NCBI GenBank assembly: GCA_036523795.1
Contig: DATDDN010000106.1
Span: 1-15,278 of the forward strand
Reading direction: 5' to 3'
Length of the DNA stretch: 15,278 nucleotides
DNA from: Gallionellaceae bacterium
GTDB lineage: Bacteria > Pseudomonadota > Gammaproteobacteria > Burkholderiales > Gallionellaceae
Positions 1 to 14,388 of this stretch are shown here, one piece after another (the first letter of the stretch is position 1; each line of letters begins with the position of its first letter). Both the position numbers and the translations under genes were made by a program. The notes under the pieces are model-generated. The model made no database searches. It saw nothing but the letters and a program-made list of their open reading frames with translations, and was not told the DNA's origin.

Positions 1-1300
1 AGTTGACCAGCACCGGCCCCAGCACGCCGGCTGTGGCCCATGCCGTCAGCAAACGCCCGTGGATGGCGCCCACCATCTGGGTGCCGAAGATGTCGGCCAG
101 ATAGGCCGGCACCGTGGCAAAGCCGCCGCCATACATGGACAGGATGATGCCGAAGGCGGCCACGAACAGCGCCACGTGGCCGGTCTGACCCAGAGTCGGG
201 ATCGACACGTAAAGGATGAAACCGAGCACGAAGAACACGAAGTAGGTGCGCTGGCGGCCGATGTAATCCGAAAATGATGCCCACACGAAACGGCCCGCGA
301 TGTTGAACAGCGACAGCAGTCCGGTGAAGCCCGCAGCGATGGCGGCGATCTGCACCTTCTGCTCCGGCGTCAGCTCATTGAAACTGGCACTGAGCCCGAG
401 CAAGCGGCCGGCAAACACTTCCTGCAGCAGCGGCGAGGCCATGCCCAGCACGCCGATGCCGGCGGTCACATTGAGGCACAGCACGGCCCAGATCAGCCAG
501 AACTGCGGGATGCCCCACACTTTGTTCACATGCACATGCCTGTCGGTGATCATGGCTTTCGCCCTGGGCTCAGGCTCCACCCAGTTGTCCGGTTTCCAGC
601 CTGCGGGCGGCACGCGGTAACCCATGGCGCCGGCCAGCATGAATACAAGATATACAGCCGCCATCACCAGGAAGGTCTCCCACACGCCCACCGAGGTCGG
701 CGTGGCGAAGTGGTGCATCAGCTCGTTGGCCAGCGGTGCGCCTATCATCGCGCCGCCGCCAAAACCCATGATGGCCATGCCGGTGGCCATGCCGCGCCGG
801 TCCGGGAACCATTTGATCAGGGTGGACACCGGCGAGATGTAACCCAGGCCCAGGCCGATGCCGCCGATTACGCCGGAACCCAGCCAGAGCAGGACGATCT
901 GATGCGTGTAGACGCCCAGCGCAGAGATCACCAGGCCGCCAGCCCAGCACAGTGCAGCCACCACGCCAGCCTTGCGCGGGCCGGCATGCTCCAGCCAACC
1001 ACCGAGCAGGGCGGCAGAGGTACCGAGCAGCACGAAGAACAGGGTAAACATCCAGCCCAGCGTGGAAATCTTCCAGTCACAGGTGGTGGAAAACAGCTCT
1101 GCAAAGGAACCCATGTCGCTAGGGCAGACCACCGACTCCTTGATGCCGATGGCGCGCGACAGCGGCAGCCAGAACACGGAGAAGCCATAAGCCATGCCGA
1201 TGCACAGGTGGATGGCCAGCGCCGCCGGCGGCACCAGCCAGCGGTTGTAGCTGGCGTGGGCGATGCTGTGCTCCTTGTCGAGAAAATCCAGAAACGCCAT
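1..1300 (-). CDS. MFS transporter, oxalate/formate antiporter (OFA) family; N-terminal ~433 aa, the 3' end lies left of the window
   Basis: Minus-strand frame starting ATG at 1298-1300 (RBS GGAGAG 5 nt upstream). It translates MAFLDFLDKEHSIAHASYNRWLVPPAALAIHLCIGMAYGFSVFWLPLS..., typical of OFA/OxlT-like MFS permeases with multiple hydrophobic helices. The frame stays open to position 1. Not in the ORF track because it runs off the window. Confidence 0.8.
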   Translation of the reverse strand, partial: MAFLDFLDKEHSIAHASYNRWLVPPAALAIHLCIGMAYGFSVFWLPLSRAIGIKESVVCPSDMGSFAELFSTTCDWKISTLGWMFTLFFVLLGTSAALLGGWLEHAGPRKAGVVAALCWAGGLVISALGVYTHQIVLLWLGSGVIGGIGLGLGYISPVSTLIKWFPDRRGMATGMAIMGFGGGAMIGAPLANELMHHFATPTSVGVWETFLVMAAVYLVFMLAGAMGYRVPPAGWKPDNWVEPEPRAKAMITDRHVHVNKVWGIPQFWLIWAVLCLNVTAGIGVLGMASPLLQEVFAGRLLGLSASFNELTPEQKVQIAAIAAGFTGLLSLFNIAGRFVWASFSDYIGRQRTYFVFFVLGFILYVSIPTLGQTGHVALFVAAFGIILSMYGGGFATVPAYLADIFGTQMVGAIHGRLLTAWATAGVLGPVLVN

Positions 1301-1420
1301 GCGTGCTCTCCCTGCGTAGAGTTGTAAAGAATTCAGGATGCCATGACCTGCCCGCGTACAGAAAACCGGAGCGCGGTCACAGGCGGCGCATGATAACCGT
1401 TTTCATCTGCCCGACACCAT

Positions 1421-3016
1421 TCAGCCTTGCCGGATCGCATCGAACTCCAGCTCAAACCGGGCCAGATATTTGCGCAAGCGGTCGGCATCGTTGGCTTGCT
1501 TCTTCAACTGCCGGGATGCAGAGAACAGCTTGCGGCCAGCCTCTGACAGGCTGGTCGAGTTACGGCACACCTCGATGACCGTGTTGAGCTGGCAGCGATC
1601 GAACATGTCCAGCTCATGACTGCGCGCGCCCAGCACCTGTTCCGCCATATCTTGCTCGACAGGCTCTGCCCAGGCCGCGCGGAGGCGCTCGATTTCTTCC
1701 AGTACGACAGGCTCGGTCACCCGCCCGGCCTCGGCCAGCGTGGCCATGCGTGTCACCGAGGCGGTCAGCTCGCGGAAATTGCCTGGCCAGCGCGCCTCCG
1801 CCGACCGGGCAAAATCCAGATAACGCCGTTTGGCTTCGACATTGAAGCGCACGCGTTCGCCGCTTTCTCCCGCATAACGCTCCAGCTCGAAATCGAGGTT
1901 GGGCTCGATGTCCTCACCGCGCCGCGCCAGACCCAGCAAATCAAATTTCCACATATTGATCCGCGCATAGAGGTCTTCGCGGAACCGTCCTTCCGCCACC
2001 CATTGCTGCAGGTTGCGATGGGTGCCGGCAATCAGCTGGAAGTTGCTCTCCACCTCGCGGTCGCCGCCGAACGGGAAGAAGCGCTTCTCTTCAATGGCCT
2101 TGAGCAGCATGGCCTGTTCGTCCAGCCCCAGCTCGCCGATCTCGTCCAGAAACAGCAGCCCGTCGTCTGCGGCACGCAACAGCCCGGAGCGCTCGCTCTG
2201 TGCGCCGGTAAATGCGCCGCGCACATGTCCAAACAGACTGGACATGGCCGAATCGCCGCGCAGGGTGGCGCAGTTCACTTCGACAAACCTGCCGGACAGG
2301 CGCTGCCGCTGGCGCTTCAACTCATACACGCGGCGAGCCAGGAAAGACTTGCCGGCACCGGTGGGACCGACCAGCAGCATCGGTGCACGCGAACGGCTGG
2401 CGACCTGTTCGATGCGCTCTATGGTGCGGTTGAATTCGGCATTGCGCGTGGCGATACCCGCCTTGAGGAACACCAGCGATTCGTCGTGCTCGCGCGCAAA
2501 GCGCTGAGCAATCTTGTTGTAACGCGACAGATCGAGGTCGATGATTTCATAGCTGCCCACTGAATCGGCCTGCTCTTTCTTGCGCGGCGGCGAAGTTTGC
2601 AGCAGGCGCGCAGGCAGGTAGCGCGCCTCGGCCAGCAGGAACCAGCAGATCTGCGCCACGTGAGTGCCGGTGGTGATGTGGATCAGGTAATCCTCGTGCT
2701 CGATGTCGAACGGGTAGCTGCGCGCCAGGTCGTGCAGCATGGTGTAGACCTCTTCGAAATCCCACGGGTCGCGCAGTTCGATCTGCACCCTGCGCACCTC
2801 GGTCTCCGGCGAAACCGAGGCAATATCGCGGCTCACCCGTTCGGCCAGCGCCGTGCTGCGCGCATCGTGCAGCAGCTCGAAACGGCTCACCAGCAAGTCC
2901 TCCTGCTGGCACAGCGCCACACTGGGACGCCACTTCTCCCAGCGCCCCATGCCTTTGCCGCCATGATCCAGCTGAGTGCCAAGAAATCCGAAAACCACCA
3001 GTCGCTTTTTATCCAT
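1421..3016 (-). CDS. rtcR: Sigma-54-dependent transcriptional activator RtcR (N-terminal CARF-type regulatory domain, central AAA+ sigma-54 activation domain, C-terminal HTH)
   Basis: 531 aa. N-terminus MDKKRLVVFGFLGTQLDHGGKG matches the E. coli RtcR N-terminus pattern (MRKTVAFGFVGTVLDYAG). Central Walker A GPTGAGKS, the GAFTGA sigma-54 contact motif and Walker B LLFLDEIGEL are present. The gene is divergent from an rtcB/rtcA operon. Confidence 0.92.
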   Translation of the reverse strand: MDKKRLVVFGFLGTQLDHGGKGMGRWEKWRPSVALCQQEDLLVSRFELLHDARSTALAERVSRDIASVSPETEVRRVQIELRDPWDFEEVYTMLHDLARSYPFDIEHEDYLIHITTGTHVAQICWFLLAEARYLPARLLQTSPPRKKEQADSVGSYEIIDLDLSRYNKIAQRFAREHDESLVFLKAGIATRNAEFNRTIERIEQVASRSRAPMLLVGPTGAGKSFLARRVYELKRQRQRLSGRFVEVNCATLRGDSAMSSLFGHVRGAFTGAQSERSGLLRAADDGLLFLDEIGELGLDEQAMLLKAIEEKRFFPFGGDREVESNFQLIAGTHRNLQQWVAEGRFREDLYARINMWKFDLLGLARRGEDIEPNLDFELERYAGESGERVRFNVEAKRRYLDFARSAEARWPGNFRELTASVTRMATLAEAGRVTEPVVLEEIERLRAAWAEPVEQDMAEQVLGARSHELDMFDRCQLNTVIEVCRNSTSLSEAGRKLFSASRQLKKQANDADRLRKYLARFELEFDAIRQG

Positions 3017-3111
3017 TTGGATAATTTACTCGATATATATCTATATATTTCAAATTGTCGCACAAGCAACAGCTCTCGCGCTCGAAATTTTACTTATTAA
3101 ATATCATGCGG

Positions 3112-3124
3112 TTATCAATATTTT
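3112..3124. promoter_or_regulatory. IHF-like site (TATCAAtattTTc vs WATCAANNNNTTR) between rtcR and the sigma-54 promoter
   Basis: 12/13 match to the IHF consensus. It lies about 25 nt upstream of the -24 element, where IHF-mediated bending is usual for sigma-54 promoters. An alternating AT tract (cgatatatatctatatattt, 3031-3050) lies further upstream. Confidence 0.3.
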
Positions 3125-3142
3125 CTATCCAACACCCCGGGC

Positions 3143-3158
3143 TGGCACACATTTCGCT
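3143..3158 (+). promoter_or_regulatory. Sigma-54 (-24/-12) promoter, TGGCAC-N5-TCGCT, driving the + strand rtc-type operon
   Basis: Perfect -24 element TGGCAC (3143-3148). GC of the -12 element is at 3156-3157, with the canonical GG-N10-GC spacing. It is adjacent to, and divergent from, the sigma-54 activator gene rtcR. Predicted TSS near 3168-3170. Confidence 0.6.
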
Positions 3159-3285
3159 GTATTGCTGGTGATCGCGGCAAAGCCCCAAAGCCCACGGGCA
3201 GAGGTTGACTAGCCTCTCCGGTGCGCGCCATCCAGGCCCAGGCCGGTCGATGACGTGCATGCCGCTGCTGCAATGTGCGATCGCG

Positions 3286-3334
3286 GGGCAATCTCTGGTG
3301 AGCCCGCCGGGTTCGATTCCCGGATTGCCCACCA
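3286..3334 (+). ncRNA. tRNA-like minihelix: 7-bp acceptor stem (GGGCAAT/ATTGCCC), T-arm (CCGGG-TTCGATT-CCCGG), discriminator A and CCA; no D or anticodon arm
   Basis: Read directly from the sequence. A canonical T-loop TTCGATT is closed by a 5-bp GC stem. A perfectly complementary acceptor stem ends in ACCA at 3331-3334. Only 14 nt (ctctggtgagcccg) replace the D and anticodon arms. It sits in the operon leader downstream of the sigma-54 promoter. Confidence 0.45.
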
Positions 3335-3405
3335 CTGGATAGCTCATTGGGTAGAGCAATCGACTAATCATCGATCTGTCGCGGGTTCGACTCCCGCTCC
3401 ACTGT
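3333..3405 (+). ncRNA. tRNA-like cloverleaf (probable tRNA mimic of the Y-RNA/YrlA type, or a pseudo-tRNA); anticodon position reads AAU
   Basis: Full 73-nt cloverleaf. Acceptor CACTGGA/TCCACTG (6/7 bp, C3-C70 mismatch), U8 and A9. D-arm GCTC-ATTGGGTA-GAGC with G18 and G19. Anticodon arm ATCGA-CTAATCA-TCGAT with U33 but a pyrimidine at position 37 and A34. 5-nt variable loop. T-arm GCGGG-TTCGACT-CCCGC with T54, T55, C56 and A58. No encoded CCA. It overlaps the CCA of the preceding minihelix by 2 nt. Confidence 0.55.
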
Positions 3406-3643
3406 CCTTACACGACAGATATGCAACACCGTAGTACCCGCCGGTTGCGGAATGCGCAAGCACCCGCCGCCGTCCGGGCCGGGCCTGCTGCCACACCGCC
3501 GGCAAGGTCGACAGAAGCAGGAGCGGAATGCTGTGCCGTACGGCAGCACCCGCAAGCGCTCTGCCCAGACCTCCCCGGCCGTGCCGCAGCAGGCACCCGC
3601 CAGGATGGCGCCCGACCGGCACATTTATCGAGGAGAAAGCAAC

Positions 3644-4783
3644 ATGCTGAAACGTTATGTCATCAAGAAAAATGAAAAAGGTTTGCTGTACAAGGACGGC
3701 GACTTCGAGCGCGTCCTCTCTGCAGGCCGCCACCTGTTTGTTGACCCGCTGCGCCGCCTGTCGCTGCAGACTTACCGGATCGACACCCAGATGAACGATG
3801 TATCCCTGGTGGATTACCTGCTCAAGACTGCGCCTGCGCAGGCCAATGAGCACTTTGTGTGCATGGAGCTGGCAGAAGACGAGGCCGGCCTGCGCTATGA
3901 GAACGGCCTGCTGGTCGAGGTGCTGCCGCCTGCCGCACGTCGTGTGTTCTGGAAAGGACTGCTACAGCACCGCCTGGACAAGGCCGACCTGAAGCAGGGA
4001 TACGCGCTGGATGCCCCCCTTGCCGGCCGCCTGGTGCAGACCGGCTTGCGTGGCCGCGCCCTGACCGGACTGACCGGTCTGCTGGTGGTGCAGATTCCCG
4101 CTTACCACGTCGGCATCCTGAAGGTGAACGGCAAGGTACAGCGCGTCCTTGAGCCCGGAGTGGAAGCGTTCTGGCGCTTCAACCGCGAGATCGAGGTAGA
4201 GCTGGTGGACACCCGCCTGCAGAACATGGAAGTCAGCGGGCAGGAGATCCTGACTCACGACAAGGTGGGGCTGCGCCTCAACCTCGCCGCCACCTGGCGC
4301 TACACCGATGCGCTGCAGGCGTTCGAAAAGCTGGTGAAGCCTGCCGAGCACCTGTACCGCGAGCTTCAGTTCGTGCTGCGTGCCGCAGTCGGAACACGCA
4401 GCCTGGATGAGCTGCTGGAAAACAAGCAGGTGATCGACGAGCTGGTCATCGCCCACGTCACCCGCAAGTTCGCCGGCTTCGGCATCGAGGTGACCAGCGC
4501 CGGCGTGAAGGACATCGTGCTGCCGGGCGAGATGAAGACCATCCTCGCCCAGGTGGTGGAGGCCGAGAAGTCGGCGCAGGCCAATGTGATCCGTCGCCGC
4601 GAGGAGACCGCAGCCACCCGTTCGCTGCTGAACACCGCCAAGGTGATGGAGGACAACCCCACCGCCCTGCGACTGAAAGAGCTGGAAACACTGGAGCGCG
4701 TGGCCGAGCGTATCGACCGCATCAGCGTATTCGGTGGACTGGACCAGGTGCTGAATGGCCTGGTGCAGATTCGCGGCGACTAA
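3644..4783 (+). CDS. SPFH/band-7 (stomatin-prohibitin-flotillin-HflK/C) domain protein, 379 aa; no N-terminal transmembrane segment, so apparently cytoplasmic
   Basis: ATG at 3644 with RBS GAGGAG 8 nt upstream. Canonical SPFH core (…IPAYHVGILKVNGKVQRVLEPGVEAFWRF…QEILTHDKVGLRLNLAATWRYTD…SLDELLENKQVIDELVIAHVTRKFAGFGIEVTSAGVKDIVLPGEMK…) is followed by a predicted coiled-coil. The N-terminal ~50 aa (VIKKNEKGLLYKDGDFERVLSAGRHLFVDP) look like a second, partial copy of the SPFH N-terminal strand region. The ORF-track start at 3452 only adds an Arg/Pro-rich, low-complexity extension typical of GC-rich non-coding DNA. Confidence 0.8.
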   Translation: MLKRYVIKKNEKGLLYKDGDFERVLSAGRHLFVDPLRRLSLQTYRIDTQMNDVSLVDYLLKTAPAQANEHFVCMELAEDEAGLRYENGLLVEVLPPAARRVFWKGLLQHRLDKADLKQGYALDAPLAGRLVQTGLRGRALTGLTGLLVVQIPAYHVGILKVNGKVQRVLEPGVEAFWRFNREIEVELVDTRLQNMEVSGQEILTHDKVGLRLNLAATWRYTDALQAFEKLVKPAEHLYRELQFVLRAAVGTRSLDELLENKQVIDELVIAHVTRKFAGFGIEVTSAGVKDIVLPGEMKTILAQVVEAEKSAQANVIRRREETAATRSLLNTAKVMEDNPTALRLKELETLERVAERIDRISVFGGLDQVLNGLVQIRGD

Positions 4784-4788
4784 GCCAT

Positions 4789-4810
4789 GGGCACGCCTGA
4801 TTGCGTGCCC
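4789..4810 (+). other. Intercistronic perfect hairpin GGGCACGC-ctgatt-GCGTGCCC (8-bp stem) with no U-tract
   Basis: Seen directly, 6 nt after the SPFH stop (4781-4783) and 18 nt before the next start codon. No downstream T-run, so more likely an mRNA processing or stability element, or a partial attenuator, than a terminator. Confidence 0.4.
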
Positions 4811-4827
4811 ACTTACCGGAGAACATC

Positions 4828-5238
4828 ATGACAAGTGGAAAACAGCGGCGTGCAGCCATCAAGGCAGCACGTTTGCGCCGGGAATTCAGGCAACAAGCGG
4901 CATTACGTGAAACGACCATGCCATCCTTGCTGCCCTTGCATACCGCAGCCGTCAACCCGGCCTGCCTGGCACCCTACAACAGCTATGGCGAGCCGGATTT
5001 CGTCAACCGCGGTTACTATCAGGACCAGCCGTTCGTGTGCGTGGATTGCGGCGCACCGGGGGTATGGAGCGCGCAGCGGCAAAAATGGTGGTATGAAATA
5101 GCCAAGGGCAACGTCTGGTCCTGCGCCATCCGCTGCCCCACCTGCCGTGCGCGACGCCGCGCCATCAGCGCAGAAGGGCGCCGCACCTGGATGGAAGGCA
5201 TGAAACACAAGCAGGCTGCCTCGCAGCCTGCCAAATAA
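4828..5238 (+). CDS. Small basic zinc-ribbon protein (136 aa) with two CxxC pairs (CVDC…CPTC), function unknown
   Basis: ATG at 4828 with GGAGAA 6 nt upstream. N-terminus Lys/Arg-rich (MTSGKQRRAAIKAARLRREFRQQ). FVCVDCGAP…(28 aa)…CAIRCPTCR forms a 4-Cys Zn-ribbon-like motif. Tightly packed between the SPFH gene and rtcB: 13 nt to the rtcB start, versus 44 nt after the SPFH stop. Confidence 0.6.
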   Translation: MTSGKQRRAAIKAARLRREFRQQAALRETTMPSLLPLHTAAVNPACLAPYNSYGEPDFVNRGYYQDQPFVCVDCGAPGVWSAQRQKWWYEIAKGNVWSCAIRCPTCRARRRAISAEGRRTWMEGMKHKQAASQPAK

Positions 5239-5251
5239 CAAGGAAACAGTT

Positions 5252-6469
5252 ATGGAACATCAAATTCTCGAGGTAGCCCACGGCAAGCCGATCAAGATGT
5301 GGACCCAGGGGGTGCCCGTTGAAGACGAGGCACGCCAGCAACTGATGAACACGGCACGGATGCCGTTCATCTTCAGCCACATTGCCGTGATGCCGGACGT
5401 GCATCTGGGCAAGGGGTCGACCATCGGCAGCGTGATCCCCACCCGTGGCGCCATCATTCCGGCAGCCGTCGGCGTGGACATCGGCTGCGGCATGATGGCG
5501 GCGCGCACCTCGCTCAAGGCGAGCGACCTGCCAGACTATCTGCACGGCCTGCGCAGCGCTATCGAGCGGGCTGTGCCGCATGGCCGCACCAGCACACGCA
5601 GCGGGCGTGACAAAGGTGCCTGGGATACGCCGCCGACAAGCGTGGATGCAATGTGGGGTGAACTGGTACCGGGCTTCAAGCGCATCATCGAGAAGCACCC
5701 GCGCCTGGCCAAAACCAACAACCACAAGCACCTGGGAACGCTTGGAACCGGTAACCACTTCATCGAAGTGTGCCTGGACGAGACCGACACGGTGTGGTTC
5801 ATGCTGCATAGCGGTTCGCGTGGTGTCGGGAATGCCATCGGCACCCACTTCATCGAACTGGCCCAGGCCGACATGCGCCAGCACATTGCCAATCTCCCGG
5901 ATCGCGACCTCGCCTATTTCGAAGAAGGCAGCTCACACTTCGCCGATTATGTCGAGGCGGTGGGGTGGGCGCAGGATTACGCGCGGCGCAATCGTGCAGT
6001 GATGATGCAGAACGTGGTTGCGGCTGCACGCCAGGTGATCGCCAAGCCGTTCGATGCCAGCGTGGAAGCGGTGAATTGCCACCACAACTATGTGCAGAAG
6101 GAAACGCATTTCGGCAGTGAGATTCTGGTCACCCGCAAGGGAGCTGTGTCCGCGCGCAAGGGTGAGCTCGGCATCATTCCCGGCTCGATGGGGGCAAAAA
6201 GCTACATCGTGCGCGGACTCGGCAACGAGGAATCGTTCTGCTCGTGCAGCCATGGTGCCGGCCGTACCATGAGCCGCAATGAAGCAAAGCGCCGCTTTAC
6301 GCTGGAAGACCAGATCGGTGCGACGGCCCATGTGGAGTGCCGCAAGGACGAGGCAGTGATCGACGAAATCCCGATGGCCTACAAGGACATCGATGCCGTG
6401 ATGGAAGCGCAGCGCGCCCTGGTGGAAGTCGTGCATACCCTGCGTCAGGTGGTATGCGTGAAGGGATGA
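5252..6469 (+). CDS. rtcB: RNA-splicing ligase RtcB (3'-phosphate/5'-hydroxyl RNA ligase)
   Basis: 405 aa, collinear over its whole length with E. coli RtcB. Examples: KMWTQGVPVE, MPFIFSHIAVMPDVHLGKGSTIGSVIPT, HLGTLGTGNHFIE, NCHHNYV, GNEESFCSCSHGAGR, TLRQVVCVKG. RBS AAGGAAA. Confidence 0.96.
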   Translation: MEHQILEVAHGKPIKMWTQGVPVEDEARQQLMNTARMPFIFSHIAVMPDVHLGKGSTIGSVIPTRGAIIPAAVGVDIGCGMMAARTSLKASDLPDYLHGLRSAIERAVPHGRTSTRSGRDKGAWDTPPTSVDAMWGELVPGFKRIIEKHPRLAKTNNHKHLGTLGTGNHFIEVCLDETDTVWFMLHSGSRGVGNAIGTHFIELAQADMRQHIANLPDRDLAYFEEGSSHFADYVEAVGWAQDYARRNRAVMMQNVVAAARQVIAKPFDASVEAVNCHHNYVQKETHFGSEILVTRKGAVSARKGELGIIPGSMGAKSYIVRGLGNEESFCSCSHGAGRTMSRNEAKRRFTLEDQIGATAHVECRKDEAVIDEIPMAYKDIDAVMEAQRALVEVVHTLRQVVCVKG

Positions 6470-6488
6470 ACAATTTCAGGAGAAGGAT

Positions 6489-7316
6489 ATGCAACACAAC
6501 AAGCCCGCCATACTGAGTGCGCACCCCATCGCACCCGAGGTGCGACAGCGAGTCATGCAGGCACTCGACGACATCGAGGCCAGGCACGACGTGCAAGTGC
6601 TGTTCGCTTGCGAATCCGGCAGCCGCGGCTGGGGTTTCGCCTCGCCGGACAGCGACTACGATGTGCGCTTCGTATACACGCACCGGCTGCCCTGGTATTT
6701 GAACGTGGAGCCGCAGCGCGATGTGATCGAACTGCCGATCAGCGACGAGCTGGACGTGAGCGGCTGGGAGCTGCGCAAAGCCTTGCGGCTGCTGCGCAGA
6801 TCCAATCCGACCCTGCTGGAATGGCTGGACTCGCCCGTGGTCTATCGCGAGAATCCGGCCGCAGCGGCACGCATGCGTACGCTCGCGCCGGATTTCTTTT
6901 CCAGGCTCAGCGTGCGCTACCACTATCTGGCGATGGCGAAGAAGAACTTTCGCGGCTATCTGCAGGGAGAGTCGGTGCGTCTGAAGAAATACCTGTATGT
7001 ATTGCGGCCCCTGCTCGCAGTGCGCTGGATAGACCGTGGCGGCGGAATGCCGCCCATGCGCTTTGCCGAGCTGGCGGATGCCATGCTTGATGACCTGCCC
7101 CTGCTGGGCGAGATCAATCGGCTGCTCGCCATCAAGATGCAGGCCAACGAGGCGGAATACAGCCCGCGCTGGCCGCTGGTGCACGCATTTATCGTCAGCG
7201 AACTGGAAAAGGTCGAGCGGCAGCTTGACTACAAAAAACCCGTGGGTGACTCGGGCGCGCTGGACCGATTTCTGGCGGATACCGTGCTGTCCTTCACGGC
7301 ACAGCAACTGATTTGA
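6489..7316 (+). CDS. Pol-beta-superfamily nucleotidyltransferase (GS…DxD minimal NTase; from memory it resembles the RtcB-linked RlaP/PF10127-type family)
   Basis: 275 aa. Motif FACESGSRGWGFASPDSDYDVRFVY is the GS-X9-13-DxD nucleotidyltransferase signature. RBS AGGAGAAGG. It lies between rtcB (stop 6469) and rtcA (start 7328) with 19 and 11 nt spacers, so it is an operon member. Confidence 0.85.
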   Translation: MQHNKPAILSAHPIAPEVRQRVMQALDDIEARHDVQVLFACESGSRGWGFASPDSDYDVRFVYTHRLPWYLNVEPQRDVIELPISDELDVSGWELRKALRLLRRSNPTLLEWLDSPVVYRENPAAAARMRTLAPDFFSRLSVRYHYLAMAKKNFRGYLQGESVRLKKYLYVLRPLLAVRWIDRGGGMPPMRFAELADAMLDDLPLLGEINRLLAIKMQANEAEYSPRWPLVHAFIVSELEKVERQLDYKKPVGDSGALDRFLADTVLSFTAQQLI

Positions 7317-7327
7317 GGTAACAAGAA

Positions 7328-8341
7328 ATGAAATTTCTGCTTCTCGATGGCGCCCACGGTGAAGGGGGCGGCCAGATCCTGCGCAGCGCGCTCACGCTTT
7401 CGATGATCACCGGACAGCCGTTCCGCATCGAGCGCATTCGCGCCGGGCGCAACAAGCCTGGCCTGTTGCGCCAGCACCTGACCGCAGTCAATGCTGCCGC
7501 CAGCATCTGCTCTGCAAGGGTCGGCGGCAATGCTGCCGGTTCGCAAACGCTGGAATTCATTCCCGGCCGCGTCAAGGGCGGGGATTACCGGTTTGACATC
7601 GGCACCGCCGGCAGTTGCACCTTGGTGCTGCAGACCGTGCTGCCCGCCTTGTGGTTTGCCGATCAGCCCAGCAGCCTGACCGTCAGCGGCGGCACGCACA
7701 ACGCTGCCGCGCCGCCGGCTGATTTTCTGATGCGCACCTGGCTGCCCGCGATGCAGCGCATGGGCGTCGACACGCATCTCGAGCTGCTGCGGCACGGCTT
7801 CTATCCGGCCGGAGGTGGCGCGGTACGCGCCAGCGTGCGTCCGCTAGCCGCCCTGCAGCCCTTGCACATGACGGAGCCCGGCCGCTCGGCTTCGGTACAG
7901 GCCATCGCCATAGTCGCCGCGTTGCCGGGCGATATTGCACGGCGCGAACTGACACGCCTGCGGCATCATTTCCCGGAGGCTGCGGAAGAAATGCGCGTGC
8001 TCGATGCCCGCGAAGGCCCGGGCAATGTGGTCATGCTCGAAGTGGCGCGCGACAATCACCGCGAGATTTTCAGTGCCTTCGGCGAGCGTGGCGTGAAGGC
8101 CGAGCTGGTCGCCGAACGCGCGGCCGGAGAGGCGCTACGCTACCTGGCCAGCAGGGCCTGCGTCAGCGAGCACCTGGCCGACCAGCTGGTGCTGCCCCTC
8201 GCACTGGCGGGTGGCGGCAGCTTTACGACCACGACGGTGTCGTCGCACCTTGCCAGCAACATGCAGGTCCTCCAGAAGTTCCTGCCGGTCGGGTTTGAGA
8301 TAACGCAGAACGGGGATATCCCGCAGATCGTTGTGCGATAA
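7328..8341 (+). CDS. rtcA: RNA 3'-terminal phosphate cyclase RtcA
   Basis: 337 aa. LDGAHGEGGGQILRSALTLSMITGQPFRIERIRAGRNKPGLLRQHLTAV… and GSCTLVLQTVLPALWFAD…LLRHGFYPAGGG…ADQLVLPLALAGGG are collinear with E. coli RtcA. Confidence 0.94.
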   Translation: MKFLLLDGAHGEGGGQILRSALTLSMITGQPFRIERIRAGRNKPGLLRQHLTAVNAAASICSARVGGNAAGSQTLEFIPGRVKGGDYRFDIGTAGSCTLVLQTVLPALWFADQPSSLTVSGGTHNAAAPPADFLMRTWLPAMQRMGVDTHLELLRHGFYPAGGGAVRASVRPLAALQPLHMTEPGRSASVQAIAIVAALPGDIARRELTRLRHHFPEAAEEMRVLDAREGPGNVVMLEVARDNHREIFSAFGERGVKAELVAERAAGEALRYLASRACVSEHLADQLVLPLALAGGGSFTTTTVSSHLASNMQVLQKFLPVGFEITQNGDIPQIVVR

Positions 8342-8515
8342 TTTGTCAGCCGTTTCCCCTGCTTCCAGTAGGGGATCTTCCCCAGGTTCACCCTCGCAAA
8401 TACCCCCTTCGGGGCATGGCCATCTACCACCAAGGTAAGCCACACCGAATGCCCGCGCAGTCTTATACTTGCAACTGAACTTTGCGGTTCTTTCGCTTAC
8501 TAACTGTCCGTGACC

Positions 8516-9631
8516 ATGTCCGAAAAGCTCATCCACATCGTCGATCACCGTCCCGGCATCCGCATGCCGCGGCTGGCTGGCGCGCTGGAGCAGCCCAGCG
8601 GTTCACTGCGCGACAGCCGTGGCCGCCTGCTGCAGGACCTGCGCATCTCGCTCACCGACCGCTGCAACTTCCGTTGCGTGTACTGCATGCCGAAGGAAAC
8701 CTTCGACAAGGATCACGTGTTCCTGCCGCGCAGCTCGCTGCTCAGCTTCGAAGAGATCGAGCGCATCGCGCGCATCTTCGTGGCGCATGGCGTGCACAAG
8801 ATCCGCCTCACCGGCGGCGAGCCGCTGCTGCGCAAGCACATCGAACAGCTGATTGAGCGCCTGGCACAACTGCGCACCCCGGACGGCCTGCCGCTCGACC
8901 TTACCCTCACCACCAATGGCTCACTGCTGGCGAAGAAGGCACGTGCCTTGAAAGACGCCGGGCTGAGCCGTGTCACCGTGTCGCTCGACTCGCTCGACGA
9001 CACCATCTTCCGCCGCATGAACGACGTCGACTTCCCCGTGTCGGAAGTGCTGCATGGCCTGGAAGCCGCGCACGAAGCCGGCCTCGGCCCGATCAAGGTG
9101 AACATGGTGGTGAAGGGCGGCATGAACGACCAGGAGATCGTGCCGATGGCGCGCTACTTCAAGGGCTCGCCGTTCATCCTGCGCTTCATCGAATACATGG
9201 ACGTCGGCACTTCCAACGGCTGGAAGATGGATGAGGTGATTCCCTCCGCCGAAGTGGTGCGCCGCATCCACGCCGAACTGCCGCTGGAAAAACTTGACCC
9301 CAACCAGCCCAGCGAAACCGCCGCGCGCTGGCGCTATGCCGATGGCTCCGGCGAGATCGGCGTCATCTCCAGCGTGACCCAGAGCTTCTGCCACGAATGC
9401 ACCCGAGCCCGCCTCTCCACCGAAGGTGTGTTGTACCACTGCCTGTTTGCCAGCGAAGGCCATGACCTGCGCGCCCTGCTGCGCGACGGCAGCAGCGACG
9501 AGGCCATCTCCAGCATCATCGCCCAGCTGTGGCGCGCGCGCAGCGACCGCTATTCCGAACTGCGCAGCCAGCAGACCGAGTACGCCGCACCCGAGCGCAA
9601 GCGGGTGGAGATGTCGTATATCGGTGGCTAA
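8516..9631 (+). CDS. moaA: GTP 3',8-cyclase MoaA (radical-SAM, molybdenum cofactor biosynthesis)
   Basis: The [10 protein letters not shown] radical-SAM cluster motif, …LTGGEPLL…, and the C-terminal [21 protein letters not shown]…MSYIGG match E. coli MoaA. An alternative in-frame GTG start at 8510 (MTMSEK) is possible. Confidence 0.93.
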
Positions 9632-9799
9632 CCCCTCCACCAGCCATTTCCCGCTCTAGTTACAAGCAGCAGCCTTCATCGCATGGCGTATACTCGGCTG
9701 ATTTCTCGATTGATAATTCGAGCCTGGCCCCTTTGATTCACTAGACTCTCTTCGGCTGGCAACTTATAGATTTTTTGACCAACGGTCGCAGAGGTAGAA

Positions 9800-10036
9800 A
9801 TGCAGGCCAAGAAAAATAAAATTTACGCAACAAGTAAGAGAGTTAAATCCGCGCTCGTTGGCATAACCAAACATATGATGCTCAATTATATTTTGTTTAA
9901 TTATGTTGATAAGAATAAATGGGTTGATGAGCTGAAAGCGTCTTTTGGAGTTCCATTTGTCGACAATCGAACAGATTTCAACTACTCGAAGTGTTTTTTT
10001 ACTGCATTAATCAAAGAGGCCTTGAACTTGGTTTAA
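9800..10036 (+). CDS. Hypothetical protein, 5' part of a low-GC gene that appears split by a -1 frame change at a T7 run
   Basis: ATG with RBS GAGGTAGAA. GC content drops sharply (about 35% vs about 65% in the surroundings). The ORF ends 36 nt after the run TTTTTTT (9994-10000). The downstream ORF continues in the -1 frame from the same run. Confidence 0.4.
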   Translation: MQAKKNKIYATSKRVKSALVGITKHMMLNYILFNYVDKNKWVDELKASFGVPFVDNRTDFNYSKCFFTALIKEALNLV

Positions 10037-10392
10037 CTTCTAGCCAGTTTTATGAGTACTTGCAGGAGCACGGGATATTGGATCGCGTGTTTATACAAAT
10101 TTCTACACTTGCTCCATTTGTAACCTATGAATACATGCAATATCAATTTATAAAAAACGATGCGCCTGGAATACATAAGAACCGACAAATTCATTTAAAG
10201 AGAAATCCTAGCCCTAACAATGAATTCAAAAAATTCGTTGAGTCCGGGATGCAGAAATTTTGCGAGGATAACGAACTCTATATTCTCGAAGATCAGGATT
10301 TGCGCATGAGAGTTGAAGGGGTATCGTTAGAGTTGTCAAAAGATCAAGCGACAGTTTTCAATTTTTTCTTTGACGACGAGAGCAAGGAATAG
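9991..10392 (+). CDS. Hypothetical protein, 3' part of the same low-GC gene (-1 frame relative to 9800..10036)
   Basis: Open frame of 133 aa with no recognisable motif. Its in-frame start codon is only a GTG inside the T-run, so the 3' part is more plausibly read by frameshift from the upstream ORF than started independently. Confidence 0.4.
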   Translation: MFFYCINQRGLELGLTSSQFYEYLQEHGILDRVFIQISTLAPFVTYEYMQYQFIKNDAPGIHKNRQIHLKRNPSPNNEFKKFVESGMQKFCEDNELYILEDQDLRMRVEGVSLELSKDQATVFNFFFDDESKE

Positions 10393-10517
10393 TTGTCGGC
10401 ACAATTGGAACCTACCTTGCGTTGTGCGTGTAAAGGTGCTGAATCTCCAACGCCCAATTTCAATGGACCGGATTAGAGGGTCGAATCTGCGCCAATCAGC
10501 ATAGTGTGCGCATTAAC

Positions 10518-10805
10518 CTAGAAATCCAACGGGTCCACATCCAGCGACCAGCGCAGCTTCCACGCACGCAGGAACTGCTGCAATGACTTGCGCGTGGCGG
10601 CGGGCACCACGCCGTACACTTCCACTTCACCCTGCACCGCCGTGGCAGCCGCATGCGCCTGCTGCGTGAAGGCATACACCTCGCCTTCGTTCTTGACCTC
10701 TGCCCGCAACAGCGCCTGGAGCACGAACGGAGGGAAGCCGGCCTGTTCGCGCTCGGCCAGCAGGGTGCGCGCCCAGGCCTCATAGTCGTGGACGATCAGC
10801 GCGCG
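10518..10805. repeat. Diverged direct repeat, copy A, of the priA 3'-terminal 369 bp (partner at 11890-12258)
   Basis: Manual alignment. Homology begins exactly at the stop codon and ends near 10805 / 12258. Copy A lacks 30 nt and 51 nt; the second deletion is bounded by TGGCGGC direct repeats. Confidence 0.7.
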
Positions 10806-10895
10806 GCCGTCAGGCGGAAAGAAGCTACGCAGCCAAAAATGGATCCTAAATTGGGTGGACACCTGGCGTACTCTCATGACAACTAGCCCAGCCAT
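10518..10895 (-). pseudogene. Relic of the priA 3' end: a novel 31-aa N-terminus fused to a shortened copy of the last ~94 codons of PriA
   Basis: Translation …ALIVHDYEAWARTLLAEREQAGFPPFVLQALLRAEVKNEGEVYAF…LRWSLDVDPLDF parallels the PriA C-terminus encoded at 11890-12258. Two in-frame deletions (30 and 51 nt), about 9% substitutions, and TAG vs TAA stop. A strong terminator sits immediately upstream of its ATG, so independent expression is unlikely. Confidence 0.6.
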
Positions 10896-10899
10896 CCGT

Positions 10900-10934
10900 A
10901 AAAAAGCAGAACCCGGAACACGGGTTCTGCTTTT
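10900..10934. terminator. Bidirectional rho-independent terminator: A6 - GCAGAACCCG-gaaca-CGGGTTCTGC - T4
   Basis: Perfect 10-bp GC-rich stem with a 5-nt loop, flanked by an A-run on the left and a T-run on the right. About 100 nt downstream of the stop of the minus-strand gene 11031-11651. Confidence 0.7.
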
Positions 10935-11030
10935 ACTCCTGCTGCTTCAGGTTTGAACTCGGGCTGTCACACAGCCTGTGTCCTCCAATCATCTGATGAG
11001 GTCAAAACCCCGTCAAATGACAAACCTTTA

Positions 11031-11651
11031 CTATTTCGCGTTGGCTACGGTATATGTGCCCACGCCGCCATGACCTGTGCCATAGGCAACAATCTTGACT
11101 GGCTGCGTAAAGCCGCCGCCCGACAATACAGTGCCAATTTCAAGGTGGCCAGACGCAATTGCCGTTACAGTCAGTGTGTTGCCAGACAGCGTGCCGGTCA
11201 TCACCAATTTGTTACCGTTATCGCCGTTATTTTCATGGTCCTTTTCTAACCCCTTCTTCTTGCCGTTATCCATTCCATTCTTCTTGCCGCGACCTTGTTG
11301 GTCTTCGTCAATGGAGCCAGTGATAGCCGTCGACGTCGGTACCGGGGCTGGGGCAGCCACTGGGACCGGATCTGGTGCAACTACTGGAGCTGGCGCAACT
11401 GCCGCAGTAGTACTTGTGGTTGTAGTTGGAGCAGTTGCAGTAGTTGTGGTTGGAGCAGTGGTAGTAGTTGTGATTGTGGTTGTGGTTGTAGGCGGACACA
11501 GCACAACTCCTGGCGGAAGAATCATGCCGGGGGGAAGGGTCGTGGTCCCGGGCGGCAGAGGAAAGCACGACAGTGTCTGTGCAGCCACAATTGGAGAGTT
11601 CGACAGCACAGCCAGGAATGCGGTGGCAACTGCGTACTTAGCGATTTTCAT
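11031..11651 (-). CDS. Secreted hypothetical protein with a signal peptide, a Thr/Pro/Ala-rich mucin-like low-complexity linker, a Lys/Asn/Gly-rich charged segment and a small C-terminal Gly-rich domain
   Basis: RBS AAGGAG 7 nt before the ATG. N-terminus [26 protein letters not shown] looks like a Sec signal with an AxA-type cleavage site. T5-T6 runs ([28 protein letters not shown]) are encoded by imperfect tandem nucleotide repeats. A terminator follows the stop. Confidence 0.7.
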
Positions 11652-11831
11652 ATTAACTCCTTATTCAAAATTTAATACAGCAAACAGGTGCGACTTCTTC
11701 CTGACTGAATGATGACTCAGGATAAATGTCTAGTGCAATGCCCATTGGATAGCCGGGGTTCCTAACATGACCAGCGGCCACTCTTCTGCATCAACGGTTA
11801 TCTATTTACGACGAACGGCGCCACAAGCACT

Positions 11832-11843
11832 TGACAATTGTCA
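11832..11843. promoter_or_regulatory. Perfect 12-bp palindrome TGACAATTGTCA (overlapping a TTGACA hexamer) upstream of the secreted-protein gene and just past the priA stop
   Basis: Seen directly. It is a 5-2-5 inverted repeat about 190 nt upstream of the ATG at 11651, a candidate operator for an unknown dimeric regulator. It does not match the LexA, CRP or FNR consensus. Confidence 0.25.
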
Positions 11844-11889
11844 CCTCATGATGGATTTCGGCTCAGTTGGCTGATCACCTTGTCGGCCT

Positions 11890-12258
11890 TTAGAAATCCA
11901 GCGGGTCCACATCCAGCGACCAGCGCAGTTTCTGCGCCGGCAGCGCATCCAGCTGCGGCTTCCAGGCGCGCAGGAACTGCTGCAGCGCCTTGCGCGTGGC
12001 GGCCTGCACCAGCAGCTGCACCAGGTAGTGGTTGGCGCGCTTGGGCATGGCGGCGGGCACCACGCCGTACACTTCCACTTCGCCCTGCACGGCCGTGGCG
12101 GCCGCATGTGCCTGCTGCATAAAGGCGTACACCTCGCCTTCGTTCTTGCCCTCTGCCCGCAACAGTGCCTGGAACACGAACGGCGGGAAACCGGCCTGTT
12201 CGCGCTCGGCCAGCAGGGTGCGCGCCCAGGCTTCGTAGTCGTGCGCGATCAGCGCGCG
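11890..12258. repeat. Direct repeat copy B, the intact 3' end of priA (partner at 10518-10805)
   Basis: See copy A. This copy is contiguous with full-length priA. Confidence 0.7.
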
Positions 12259-14094
12259 GAACAGGGGATGCTCGGGAAAGGCGGTCTGCACCAGCACTTC
12301 GCCCGGCTTGTCGGCACGGCCGGCGCGACCGGCCACCTGTGACAGCTGGGCGAACAGTTTTTCCGAGGCGCGAAAGTCGCTGCTGTACAGCGCGCTATCC
12401 GGGTTGAGCACGCCCACCAGGGTGAGGTTCGGAAAGTCGTGACCCTTGGCCAGCATCTGGGTGCCCACCAGGATGTCCACCGCATCATCCTGGATCTTCT
12501 TGCGCATGGCGGCCCAGCTGCCCTTGTTGCGCGTGCTGTCGCGATCCACCCGCAGGATTCTGGCCTCAGGGAAGTGTGCCTGCAGCGCCGCCTCGATGCG
12601 CTGGGTGCCGATGCCGACCGGCTGCAGGTCGGTGTTGCCGCAGGAGGGACAGGCGTGCGGCACGCGCTGCTGATGGCCGCAGTGGTGGCAGCGCAGGCGG
12701 CGGTCCCTCAGGTGCAACACCAGCTTGCCCGCGCAATGGGGGCAGCCGGACAGCCAGCCGCAGGCGGTGCACATCAGCACCGGCGCATGGCCGCGGCGGT
12801 TGATGAACACCAGGCTTTGTTCCTTGCGCTGCAGGCGCTCACCCAGGGCGGCGAGCAGGGCCGGCGTCATGCCTTCGTGCAGCGGCACGGTGGTGGTGTT
12901 GAGGCAGCGCACCTCGGGCAGGCGCGCCTGCTGGTTGGCGCGCTGGCGCAGCGGCAGCAGGGTGTAGCGCCCGCTGTGCGCGTTGTGCCAGCTTTCCAGC
13001 GAGGGGGTGGCCGAGCCGAGCACGATGGGGACCGATCTTTGATTCGCTCGGAAGATGGCCACGTCGCGCGCCGAATAGCGCAGGCCGTCCTGCTGCTTGA
13101 ACGAGGCATCATGCTCTTCGTCCACGATGATCAGGCCCAGCTCGGGTAGCGGAGTGAATACTGACAGGCGGGTGCCCAGCACGATGCGCGCCTGCCCCGA
13201 CTGCGCGCGCAACCAGTTCTGTGTGCGCTCACCCTCGCTGAGGCCGCTGTGCAGGCTGACCAGCTCGGTCTGCGGGAAGCGGCTCTGGAAGTAATGCTCC
13301 AGCTGCGGGGTGAGGTTGATCTCAGGCACCAGCAGCAGCACTTGGCCACTGCGCTGCAGGAAGTGGTGCATCAGGTGCACGTAGACTTCGGTCTTGCCGC
13401 TGCCGGTGATGCCGTACAGCAGGAAGCTGGCATAGCCTGCGGAGCGGGTGACGGGGTCGACCGCCTGTTGCTGTTCGTCGGTGAGGGTGTGGGCGTTTTC
13501 AAACGCGACTTGGGTGAGTTCGCCCGCTGCCTTGGCATGCTCAGGCGACGATGTTGGCGCACACTCCCGAGCCCAACCGGTTTCCAGCAATGCCTTCAGT
13601 GTGGCCATCGCACTGGGCGAGAGCGCACGCACCTGCTGCGCGCCCAGCGGGCCGGCCTGCAGGGCCGCCAGGATGCGGTGCTGGACCACCTTGCGCTTGG
13701 GCAGCTGCGCCAGATCGAGCGCGCGTCCTGCTTCACTCAGTTCATAAGTCAGCGCCCGCTTCAGCGTGACAGGCTCGCCGCTGCGCACGCGCGCAGGCAG
13801 CGCGGCAAGTACGGTCATACCGAGTGGATGCTGGTAATAGTCGCTACAGAAGCGCAGCAGCTTGAGCAGGTCGGCGGGCAACGGCGGCACGTCGTCCAGC
13901 ACTTGCTGCACCGCTTTGATGCGCTCGGCGGGAACATCGGTTTCACTCAGGCACTCAAGCACCACGCCGACCATCTGCTGGCGGCCGAACGGCACCAGCA
14001 CGCGTTGCCCCACCACTGCAGTGAAATTTTCCGGCAGAAAATAATCAAACAGTGTTGACAGCGGCACGTCGAGTGCAACGCGAACAAAATTCAT
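11890..14094 (-). CDS. priA: Primosomal protein N' (replication-restart helicase PriA)
   Basis: 734 aa. N-terminus MNFVRVALDVPLSTLFDYFLPE (E. coli [22 protein letters not shown]). Walker A GITGSGKTEVY, DEEHD, the Cys-rich Zn-binding region CTACGWLSGCPHCAGKL…CHHCGHQQRVPHACPSCG, and a C-terminal …LDVDPLDF. Confidence 0.95.
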   Translation of the reverse strand: MNFVRVALDVPLSTLFDYFLPENFTAVVGQRVLVPFGRQQMVGVVLECLSETDVPAERIKAVQQVLDDVPPLPADLLKLLRFCSDYYQHPLGMTVLAALPARVRSGEPVTLKRALTYELSEAGRALDLAQLPKRKVVQHRILAALQAGPLGAQQVRALSPSAMATLKALLETGWARECAPTSSPEHAKAAGELTQVAFENAHTLTDEQQQAVDPVTRSAGYASFLLYGITGSGKTEVYVHLMHHFLQRSGQVLLLVPEINLTPQLEHYFQSRFPQTELVSLHSGLSEGERTQNWLRAQSGQARIVLGTRLSVFTPLPELGLIIVDEEHDASFKQQDGLRYSARDVAIFRANQRSVPIVLGSATPSLESWHNAHSGRYTLLPLRQRANQQARLPEVRCLNTTTVPLHEGMTPALLAALGERLQRKEQSLVFINRRGHAPVLMCTACGWLSGCPHCAGKLVLHLRDRRLRCHHCGHQQRVPHACPSCGNTDLQPVGIGTQRIEAALQAHFPEARILRVDRDSTRNKGSWAAMRKKIQDDAVDILVGTQMLAKGHDFPNLTLVGVLNPDSALYSSDFRASEKLFAQLSQVAGRAGRADKPGEVLVQTAFPEHPLFRALIAHDYEAWARTLLAEREQAGFPPFVFQALLRAEGKNEGEVYAFMQQAHAAATAVQGEVEVYGVVPAAMPKRANHYLVQLLVQAATRKALQQFLRAWKPQLDALPAQKLRWSLDVDPLDF

Positions 14095-14179
14095 TTTGCT
14101 AAATTTTTTTCCGGTGATTTCTTCATTATTCAGCCGACGCTGTTGACTGAATTGGAGTTTTTATCTTACCCACACAATC

Positions 14180-14188
14180 TGTGGATAA
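14180..14188 (-). promoter_or_regulatory. Consensus DnaA box TTATCCACA (minus-strand orientation) in the priA upstream region
   Basis: The + strand reads TGTGGATAA at 14180-14188, a perfect 9-mer about 90 nt upstream of the priA start. A single box, so regulatory significance is uncertain. Confidence 0.3.
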
Positions 14189-14311
14189 CTATGTGTGTAA
14201 TCTTAAAATAACTCGGCTAACTACCCATGCCGTATACAGTTTTTTCTGTATGCCTGTTTTGCGAGCAGCCGCAGATATTTTTTAAATTCAATAGCTTGCC
14301 TACAAATGGTA

Positions 14312-14341
14312 GAGGCCGCAGGAAAAATCTCCTGCGGCCTC
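14312..14341 (-). terminator. Perfect 12-bp inverted repeat GAGGCCGCAGGA-aaaatc-TCCTGCGGCCTC downstream of hemE; probable (U-tract-poor) terminator or RNA stability hairpin
   Basis: Seen directly. Lies 48-77 nt past the hemE stop on the minus strand. The downstream U-tract is weak (CCAUUUGU), so it may be a rho-dependent pause or stabiliser rather than a classic intrinsic terminator. Confidence 0.45.
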
Positions 14342-14388
14342 TGCTGTATTCCCGTGCTTGTGCATAAGCGCGGGCTTGTCAAGCACGA

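Follow-up and report, generated by a model that had tools for sequence, protein, structure and literature searches.

Bacterial rtc operons are widespread, yet it is unclear which substrates they act on in the cell and what their RNA components do. We analysed a 15,278-nt stretch of DNA, a contig of a metagenome-assembled genome of a Gallionellaceae bacterium (GenBank assembly GCA_036523795.1, contig DATDDN010000106.1, positions 1 to 15,278; hereafter the window), in which an rtc operon is transcribed divergently from its regulatory gene rtcR and is preceded by a 5' leader that contains a 73-nt tRNA-like element at positions 3333-3405(+). The first gene of the operon encodes a Band-7/SPFH protein, and an alignment of this protein was used to retrieve 80 related genomic loci, which together with the window made 81 sources. 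The features of the locus are given below by position in the window.

1421-3016, minus strand: rtcR, a sigma-54 activator with an RtcR/CARF N-terminal domain (Pfam RtcR 1.6e-87, Sigma54_activat 7.8e-50).
3143-3158, plus strand: sigma-54 (-24/-12) promoter, TGGCACACATTTCGCT, a single match to TGGCAC-N5-TYGCW.
3170-3285, plus strand: leader Domain I, with helices P1, P2, H3/H4 and H5 (covariation on alignment A2).
3286-3331, plus strand: Module 1, a reduced tRNA-like minihelix (covariation, recurrent second T-loop).
3333-3405, plus strand: tRNA-like cloverleaf (module 2, a b7a-tRNA module) with the loop CTAATCA (ARAGORN, Rfam tRNA, covariation over 70 orthologues).
3402-3418, plus strand: 3' hairpin CTGTC/GACAG (94% of cells paired; three of four pairs with compensatory changes).
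3441-3619, plus strand: leader Domain II (RNAalifold, 45 loci).
3644-4783, plus strand: Band-7/SPFH (slipin-family) protein, first gene of the operon (Pfam Band_7 7.5e-31).
4801-5238, plus strand: zf_Tbcl treble-clef zinc-finger protein (Pfam PF13451 1.6e-12; 27 of 81 sources).
5252-6469, plus strand: RtcB RNA ligase (Pfam RtcB 6.4e-131; 73 of 81 sources).
6489-7316, plus strand: RlaP nucleotidyltransferase (Pfam RlaP 5.2e-97; 40 of 81 sources).
7328-8341, plus strand: RtcA RNA 3'-phosphate cyclase (Pfam RTC 1.3e-84; 37 of 81 sources).

The element was recognised by general tRNA models. ARAGORN called tRNA-Ile(aat) at 3333-3407(+), and the Rfam tRNA model (RF00005, gathering score 29 bits) matched 3333-3405(+) over model positions 1-71 of 71 with a score of 53.2 bits (E = 3e-9 for the whole window), which was the sole above-threshold Rfam result in the 15.3 kb window. 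The initial annotation, made from the letters of the window, had described a tRNA mimic that might belong with the YrlA Y RNAs and had pointed to both kinds of model; the tRNA callers recovered the element, while the YrlA model reached 17.8 bits. The nucleotides that it had listed as hallmarks of tRNA tertiary folding were all present, namely U8 (position 3340), A14, G18/G19 in the D-loop ATTGGGTA, A21, U33, and T54, T55, C56 and A58 within TTCGA at 3386-3390, together with a 5-nt variable loop (CTGTC) and anticodon and T stems of 5 bp each. The defects that it had reported were present as well: the loop CTAATCA gives the anticodon AAU with a cytosine at position 37, the acceptor stem carries a C3-C70 mismatch, and the discriminator U is followed by CCT instead of CCA. 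The folding z-score of the element was unremarkable (-1.26), as is usual for tRNAs, and the case for the element is therefore carried by the covariance-model score and by the comparative data.

The retrieved loci came mostly from Betaproteobacteria (Gallionellaceae, Rhodocyclales, Thiobacillaceae and Burkholderia/Paraburkholderia). ARAGORN detected the main tRNA-like copy on the operon strand in 54 of these loci and in the window, and a search for the T-loop motif placed the element in about 75 of the 80. This copy lies 230-295 nt 5' of the Band-7 start codon, at a nearly constant distance. The anticodons assigned by ARAGORN across the loci were of about a dozen different kinds, and the loop sequences varied even among close relatives. 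From its sequence and position across these genomes, we conclude that the tRNA-like element recurs beyond chance.

Comparison of 70 distinct orthologues, trimmed to tRNA positions 1-73 (alignment A3), showed which parts of the tRNA are kept. The cloverleaf pairs were formed in 92.1% of cells, against 31-44% in controls in which the pairing was slid by 1-3 columns; compensatory double changes were found at 12 pairs, and the observed covariation was reached by none of 500 shuffles. The anticodon stem was paired in 97.7% of cells with four of its five pairs covarying, the T stem was paired in 100%, and the D stem was invariant. The nucleotides A9, G18, G46, T54, T55, C56 and A58 were invariant and G19 was retained in 67 of 70 sequences, so that the elbow positions of a canonical tRNA (G18, G19, T54, T55, C56 and A58) are those expected. 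The acceptor stem was kept in its inner half only: pairs 4-7:66-69 were formed in at least 96% of cells, while pair 3:70 was formed in 70%, pair 2:71 in 49% and pair 1:72 in 31%. The full 7-bp acceptor of the initial reading had to be corrected on this point, as only pairs 4:69 to 7:66 are conserved and the 3' strand is shared with the hairpin that follows. In the window, this hairpin (3402-3406/3414-3418) overlaps nucleotides 70-72 of the acceptor, which makes the two folds mutually exclusive, and the minimum-free-energy fold of 3286-3420 combined a 4-bp acceptor with the 3' hairpin.

The anticodon loop followed no such constraint. A 7-nt loop was found in only 34 of the 70 orthologues and loops of 4-6 nt in the other 36; 17 sequences had C-GNRA-G, six had GNRA and five had UUCG or CUCG, the remainder being scattered, which gives GNRA or UNCG caps in at least 28. 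The window's own loop, CTAATCA, occurred once in the set. About half of the orthologues combined a 7-nt loop with U33, and CUCAUCA was conserved in one clade. In locus L018 (3668-3749), an extension of the anticodon arm by about 9 nt (CCGCGCGGGCCAAGCCCGTTCGG) replaced the loop, which is again an unconstrained loop.

A Burkholderia group differed from the other sequences in several respects. At column 8 of alignment A3, A replaced U8 in 14 of the 70 orthologues, all from this group (Burkholderia and one Paraburkholderia; for example L045, L054 and L072). In the same group, the acceptor stem is complete at 7 bp (TGTTCGR with YCGAACG), and the anticodon arm has a 6-bp stem with a GAAA, GCAA or GCGA cap.

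When the element was held against a canonical decoding tRNA, it failed at the loop (7 nt, U33, purine at 37 and a conserved anticodon), with C37 in the window and loops and anticodons that vary between loci, and it failed at the aminoacyl end (7-bp acceptor and free 3' end for CCA), with the outer pairs formed in 31-70% of cells, a hairpin on the 3' side and no CCA encoded, while it passed at the elbow. As read from the alignment, the features under selection are the tRNA core and elbow (D stem, D-loop GG, T arm and G46) and the presence of an anticodon-arm helix; the anticodon loop, the outer acceptor stem and the CCA end are not. By the same comparison, the element cannot decode. Since the core and elbow are kept while the features needed for decoding and aminoacylation are lost, the element is best described as an RNA selected for its tRNA shape; it is neither a working tRNA nor a gene in decay. 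The claim of the initial annotation that structure is conserved and decoding is lost held over the 70 orthologues on all three counts (covariation, invariant elbow and variable loop), but the decoy, substrate or built-in ligand role that it had proposed, if centred on the anticodon loop, fits poorly with the tetraloop caps and the short loops.

An RNA of this description has been predicted before. In certain bacteria, RtcB adjoins a Band-7 domain protein and a predicted noncoding RNA resembling tRNA, named b7a-tRNA; as summarised in a 2018 preprint by Wang, Chen, Wolin and Xiong, this class is credited to Burroughs and Aravind 2016 (Nucleic Acids Res) and was proposed to be functionally redundant with YrlA, as a substitute for YrlA and Ro60 (bioRxiv 10.1101/312249). 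Going by that summary, the element is an example of b7a-tRNA and not a new kind of RNA, and the novelty implied at first has to be given up, the class having been predicted and named in 2016 (bioRxiv 10.1101/312249). The pattern of conservation makes it very probable that the element is a tRNA mimic of the b7a-tRNA kind, conserved and unable to decode.

The leader around the element is itself conserved and structured. It spans about 3170-3643, about 475 nt from the sigma-54 promoter into the operon. The promoter motif TGGCAC-N5-TYGCW had one match in the window against 0.07 expected by chance, and in 69 of 75 sequences the same motif preceded the tRNA-like T-loop by 232-274 nt (by 232-250 nt with three exceptions), which would place the start of transcription near 3170. 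Neither a sigma-70-like promoter nor a terminator-like (intrinsic) site was found in a search of 3000-3700. Given the single sigma-54 match and these two negatives, the sequence indicates that the element lacks both a promoter and a terminator to itself and is inside the 5' leader of the RtcR-controlled operon.

Domain I is composed of the long-range closing helix P1 (3170-3175/3277-3282), P2 (3189-3191/3264-3266), H3/H4 (3193-3223) and H5 (3224-3257). On alignment A2, which holds 65 loci, P2 sits in an invariant ATGCCGC motif and was paired in 94% of cells, H3/H4 was paired in 92% and H5 in 90%, with compensatory changes at seven of the eight H5 pairs. Outside Burkholderia, which lacks P1 in that register, a search of each sequence found P1 as helices of 5-11 bp made of many different complementary sequence pairs; counted by column on the MAFFT alignment, where the two strands are out of register, it was paired in 37% of cells, and its cross-locus control was uninformative as many loci share the same helix.

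Module 1 resembles a shortened tRNA, with an acceptor-like stem of 7 bp (3286-3292/3324-3330), a 3-bp hairpin with a GG loop (3293-3302) and a T arm (3307-3323) with the loop TTCGATT. Its acceptor-like stem was paired in 81% of cells with compensatory changes at seven of seven pairs, and its T arm in 97%. A second GGTTCGAnTCC T-loop was found 68-83 nt (mostly 72-76 nt) upstream of the first in nearly all loci, and the gap between Module 1 and module 2 was 3-6 nt. In the window, A-CCA comes after Module 1 and overlaps the first 2 nt of the cloverleaf; N-CCA follows Module 1 in only 20 of 58 loci. In three loci the upstream module was a second full-length tRNA-like sequence, and the tandem copies overlapped or abutted by 0-3 nt: L069 (1979-2121, a Betaproteobacterium), L076 (1161-1311, an Accumulibacter) and L202 (4665-4806, a Photobacterium plasmid). 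These two full copies in L069, L076 and L202 suggest, at the level of sequence, an ancestral tandem pair and a reduced Module 1 that derives from a duplicated tRNA-like element.

Downstream, the conserved motif GCAGTACCCG (in the window, GTAGTACCCG) precedes Domain II, a structure of about 180 nt closed by CCGGT (3441-3445) and ACCGG (3615-3619), with a GCAA-capped hairpin and long internal helices inside. RNAalifold on 45 loci predicted 38 pairs; 29 of these carry compensatory double changes, and the middle of the domain holds a variable insertion. Domain II ends about 10 nt 5' of the ribosome-binding site GAGGAG (3630-3635). The reading of the leader as coding sequence was rejected on account of the RNA covariation and the indels of the alignment. 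Database gene calls (P0005 of 525 aa and P0062 of 475 aa) and a window open reading frame (ORF) at 3452-4783 extend the Band-7 protein upstream through the leader; the conserved start ATG at 3644 and the GAGGAG before it suggest that these extensions are probably annotation artefacts of a GC-rich noncoding RNA.

A search of 3020-3700 against Rfam at a permissive threshold found no family for any part of the leader beyond tRNA and gave only weak partial matches. A covariance model of Domain I and both modules (R1) recovered family members outside its seed at 114-239 bits; the Photobacterium locus scored 76 bits, too close to phage tRNA arrays (which reach 71 bits) to be told apart from them, and the homology of Domain I beyond Betaproteobacteria is consequently a matter of motifs recognised by eye. 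A pattern scan of viral contigs (T-loop, 16-24 nt, AGCTC, 30-48 nt, T-loop) returned phage tandem-tRNA arrays only and was discarded as too unspecific. Among cultured hosts, Burkholderia cenocepacia and Azonexus/Dechloromonas carry this leader, and P. aeruginosa has a locus in the equivalent position.

Comparison of the gene content of the 81 sources showed that the order rtcR, leader, Band-7 and RtcB is conserved over the loci, while RlaP, RtcA and zf_Tbcl are optional. The rtcR gene occupied the same divergent position in 68 sources. The Band-7 gene, which starts 238 nt downstream of the element, was present in 81 of 81 and was the gene most tightly linked to the leader. In the window, a MoaA-like radical SAM gene (8510-9631, plus strand) follows RtcA; it was not found downstream in any of the 80 related loci, whose sequence often ends near RtcA, and it is probably not part of the system. 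The other genes change in two loci that retain the leader. In L069, FolD, PurE and Sua5 flank the leader and Band-7, and neither RtcR nor RtcB is nearby. A Citrobacter freundii plasmid (L201, 2966-6919) has rtcR, leader, slipin and RlaP without RtcB, and in its leader a sigma-54 promoter, an H3/H4-like element and a single T arm are kept, but the full cloverleaf is missing; megablast of this leader and slipin gene against E. coli RefSeq genomes gave no match. The retention of the leader with a Band-7 gene lacking RtcB in both L069 and L201 suggests, from gene linkage, a specific partnership of leader and Band-7.

An AlphaFold model of the Band-7 protein was built from a 12-sequence alignment, and its SPFH half was poor. 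Residues 1-190 (3644-4213) formed a beta-rich N-terminal domain ahead of the SPFH domain (pLDDT mostly 84-91), and the model has no N-terminal helix where membrane-anchored SPFH proteins usually carry one. Foldseek against the PDB matched the model to SPFH proteins only (stomatin, HflK/C and prohibitin). The beta-rich domain is, on the strength of the model, a candidate RNA- or partner-binding domain.

In the mechanism that we propose, the element would be made only once RtcR switches the operon on and would fold into the L shape of a tRNA. Factors that read the elbow, such as RNase P and the enzymes that modify the T- and D-loops, could then recognise it, by analogy with YrlA (PMC4201824). 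Cleavage 5' of each module would free Module 1, with a CCA-like end in some species. The RNA might serve as partner or scaffold of a Band-7 RNA-repair complex, as Y RNA does with Ro60 in rsr-yrlA-rtcBA operons; this role is drawn from the gene linkage and from the proposal cited in the 2018 preprint (bioRxiv 10.1101/312249). The scaffold or cofactor step, argued by analogy, is tentative and we set it below even odds. Taken as a whole, the best explanation is a b7a-type mimic in the leader that serves the Band-7 repair complex, to which we assign a probability of about 0.55.

Several points weigh against this explanation. As of the 2018 preprint, and in the words of its summary of the class, the existence of b7a-tRNA had not been validated experimentally (bioRxiv 10.1101/312249), and our own assignment compares the element with a secondary description of the class. 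RNA binding by the Band-7 protein is putative, and the search of its N-terminal beta-rich domain with Foldseek against the PDB gave no informative match and no RNA-binding clue. The rest of the leader is as conserved as the element (alignment A2; RNAalifold), and what functions may be the entire leader, in cis, instead of a released tRNA-like RNA.

The explanation that survives best beside the b7a-type mimic takes up this last point. The two modules would be cis-acting parts of the leader that recruit RNase P or other tRNA-processing enzymes for cleavage of the primary transcript and that, with Domains I and II, set the stability of the mRNA or the translation of Band-7, with no cofactor acting in trans. 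The placing of the element in a continuous leader, without a separate promoter or terminator, the strongly covarying Domain II that ends about 10 nt before the ribosome-binding site, the near-constant distance between the tRNA-like sequence and the start codon, and the 3-6 nt between Modules 1 and 2, as expected of a processing site, all speak for it. However, a plain processing signal needs neither two tRNA-like modules nor about 300 nt more of covarying structure, and the leader follows Band-7 even where other genes change. We regard this cis-acting leader as plausible and compatible with the best explanation, and as the rather less likely account when taken by itself.

A decoy, a sensor or a built-in substrate is improbable. 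Here the RNA would be cut by the anticodon nucleases that damage tRNAs, or compete with tRNAs for them, and would either buffer the damage or provide RtcR with a ligand or RtcB, RtcA and RlaP with a substrate. RtcR is activated by tRNA fragments that end in a 2',3'-cyclic phosphate, and YrlA has been suggested as a possible competitive inhibitor of an anticodon nuclease (PMC7790460); the orthologues with a 7-nt loop and U33, about half of the set, and the clade that keeps CUCAUCA would also suit this role. However, the GNRA and UNCG tetraloops (at least 28 of 70) and the loops of 4-6 nt (36 of 70) are not mimics of an anticodon loop, the loop sequence differs between close relatives, the position of the promoter puts synthesis of the RNA after the activation of RtcR, and Salmonella YrlA was not cut by the RecA-dependent nuclease (PMC7790460).

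The remaining three explanations are each contradicted by the tests reported here. A YrlA-type Y RNA bound to a Ro60 (Rsr) from another part of the genome is very improbable. The rtc context is that of Salmonella, and local matches at 3261-3357 were obtained with the Rfam models of YrlA (RF02553; 17.8 bits, model positions 31-81) and Deinococcus_Y_RNA (15.5 bits), but these scores are far under the thresholds of 69 and 80 bits, and the YrlA match combines the Module 1 T arm with the module 2 D arm, which is the type of artefact known from tandem tRNAs: Chen et al. 2014 described such false positives and took as criterion for YrlA a position within about 4 kb of rsr (PMC4201824). No window ORF was both large enough for Rsr and unassigned, the large ORFs within 5 kb all belonging to other families. 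A terminal stem with a Ro60-binding site was not identified either: P1 closes Domain I, and no Ro-binding motif was recognised, without a model dedicated to that motif. The initial placement of the element with the YrlA RNAs thus fails for the family, at 17.8 against 69 bits and with no rsr nearby, and stands for a Ro-independent functional analogue, in keeping with the context of an rtc leader and the absence of a Ro60 gene from the window.

A tRNA gene that truly decodes, tRNA-Ile(AAU) in the window, is more improbable still. An adenine at position 34 is not known to be modified outside tRNA-Arg(ACG), which counts against it. The window has C37 and a discriminator U, the anticodon changes from locus to locus, and 36 of the 70 loops are too short; the outer acceptor pairs are formed in 31-70% of orthologues, there is no CCA, the 3' side enters a conserved hairpin, and transcription occurs inside an mRNA leader from a stress-induced sigma-54 promoter. 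The gene is called by ARAGORN and Rfam, and its Pseudomonas aeruginosa counterpart, PA4581.1, is annotated as a tRNA (tRNA-Arg) and gave a signal in qRT-PCR (PMC13637947). A decaying tRNA pseudogene or a chance tRNA-like sequence, although in line with the C-C mismatch, the pyrimidine at position 37, the missing CCA and the z-score of -1.26, is equally hard to credit, as the element keeps its place in about 75 loci that extend from Gallionellaceae and Rhodocyclales to Burkholderia, occurs as a tandem in a Photobacterium, and shows double compensatory changes at 12 pairs with tertiary nucleotides that are invariant or nearly so.

Beyond the b7a-type mimic, a wider extension can be drawn. The leader RNA in full (about 475 nt), or stable fragments that RNase P frees from it, could form the dedicated RNA subunit of a soluble SPFH/Band-7 ring or cage, with tandem tRNA-like modules as the ancestral state; we consider this speculative and on balance unlikely. 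Such an RNA-repair ribonucleoprotein built on an SPFH cage would follow a logic like that of Ro60 and Y RNA or of vaults and vault RNA, an analogy that we offer with the same reserve.

If the leader were the RNA subunit of an SPFH-cage particle, it would define a new bacterial ribonucleoprotein and offer a workable system for asking why RNA repair comes with tRNA look-alikes. The RNA/protein pair is Y RNA and Ro60 in some bacteria, and would be a tRNA mimic and a Band-7 protein in others. The comparative data show where to look, at the elbow and core, with neither the anticodon loop nor the aminoacyl end among the selected features. A Band-7 gene always accompanies the element, which lies inside a much larger conserved structured leader, and this larger leader is the part most worth following. 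Genome pipelines count such elements as real tRNA genes (tRNA-Ile(AAU) here and tRNA-Arg in PAO1), which distorts tRNA inventories.

Comparison with known systems places the element closest to b7a-tRNA, from which no feature examined here sets it apart. The two features of that class, as the preprint summarises it, are both found here: a strong resemblance to tRNA (53.2 bits with Rfam, the ARAGORN call and covariation) and a position adjoining a Band-7/SPFH gene in an RtcB repair operon, in the window and across the 80 loci (bioRxiv 10.1101/312249). PA4581.1 ('tRNA-Arg4') of P. aeruginosa PAO1, which lies between rtcR and PA4582 (SPFH), is annotated as tRNA-Arg, has no CCA and is detectable by qRT-PCR (PMC13637947, PMC13086221), and it has atypical D-loop features (PMC13637947, PMC13086221, PMC8619066). 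It shares with the element its position and the absence of CCA, the orthology being one of position and description only, and it differs in that it is both annotated and treated as an arginine tRNA whose anticodon looks conserved.

The element resembles YrlA in its role and context without belonging to the same family. Both are non-decoding tRNA mimics of RtcR-controlled rtc operons that keep the T-/D-loop elbow and are proposed cofactors of RNA repair. YrlA is a substrate of TruB, DusA and RNase P, and tRNA-like processing and modification are known for YrlA of Salmonella and M. smegmatis (PMC4201824). YrlA carries a permuted tRNA-like domain on a Ro60-binding stem and lies near rsr, whereas the element is a complete, non-permuted cloverleaf with no Ro60 gene in the window. 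With mascRNA of the MALAT1 type, the element has in common a tRNA-like fold within a longer transcript, the absence of an anticodon function and an expected recognition by RNase P. mascRNA is eukaryotic and lies at the 3' end of its transcript; the weak Rfam match of mascRNA-menRNA to Module 1 (18.7 bits against a threshold of 42.5) gives no homology, and the likeness would be one of fold and of the processing predicted for the leader.

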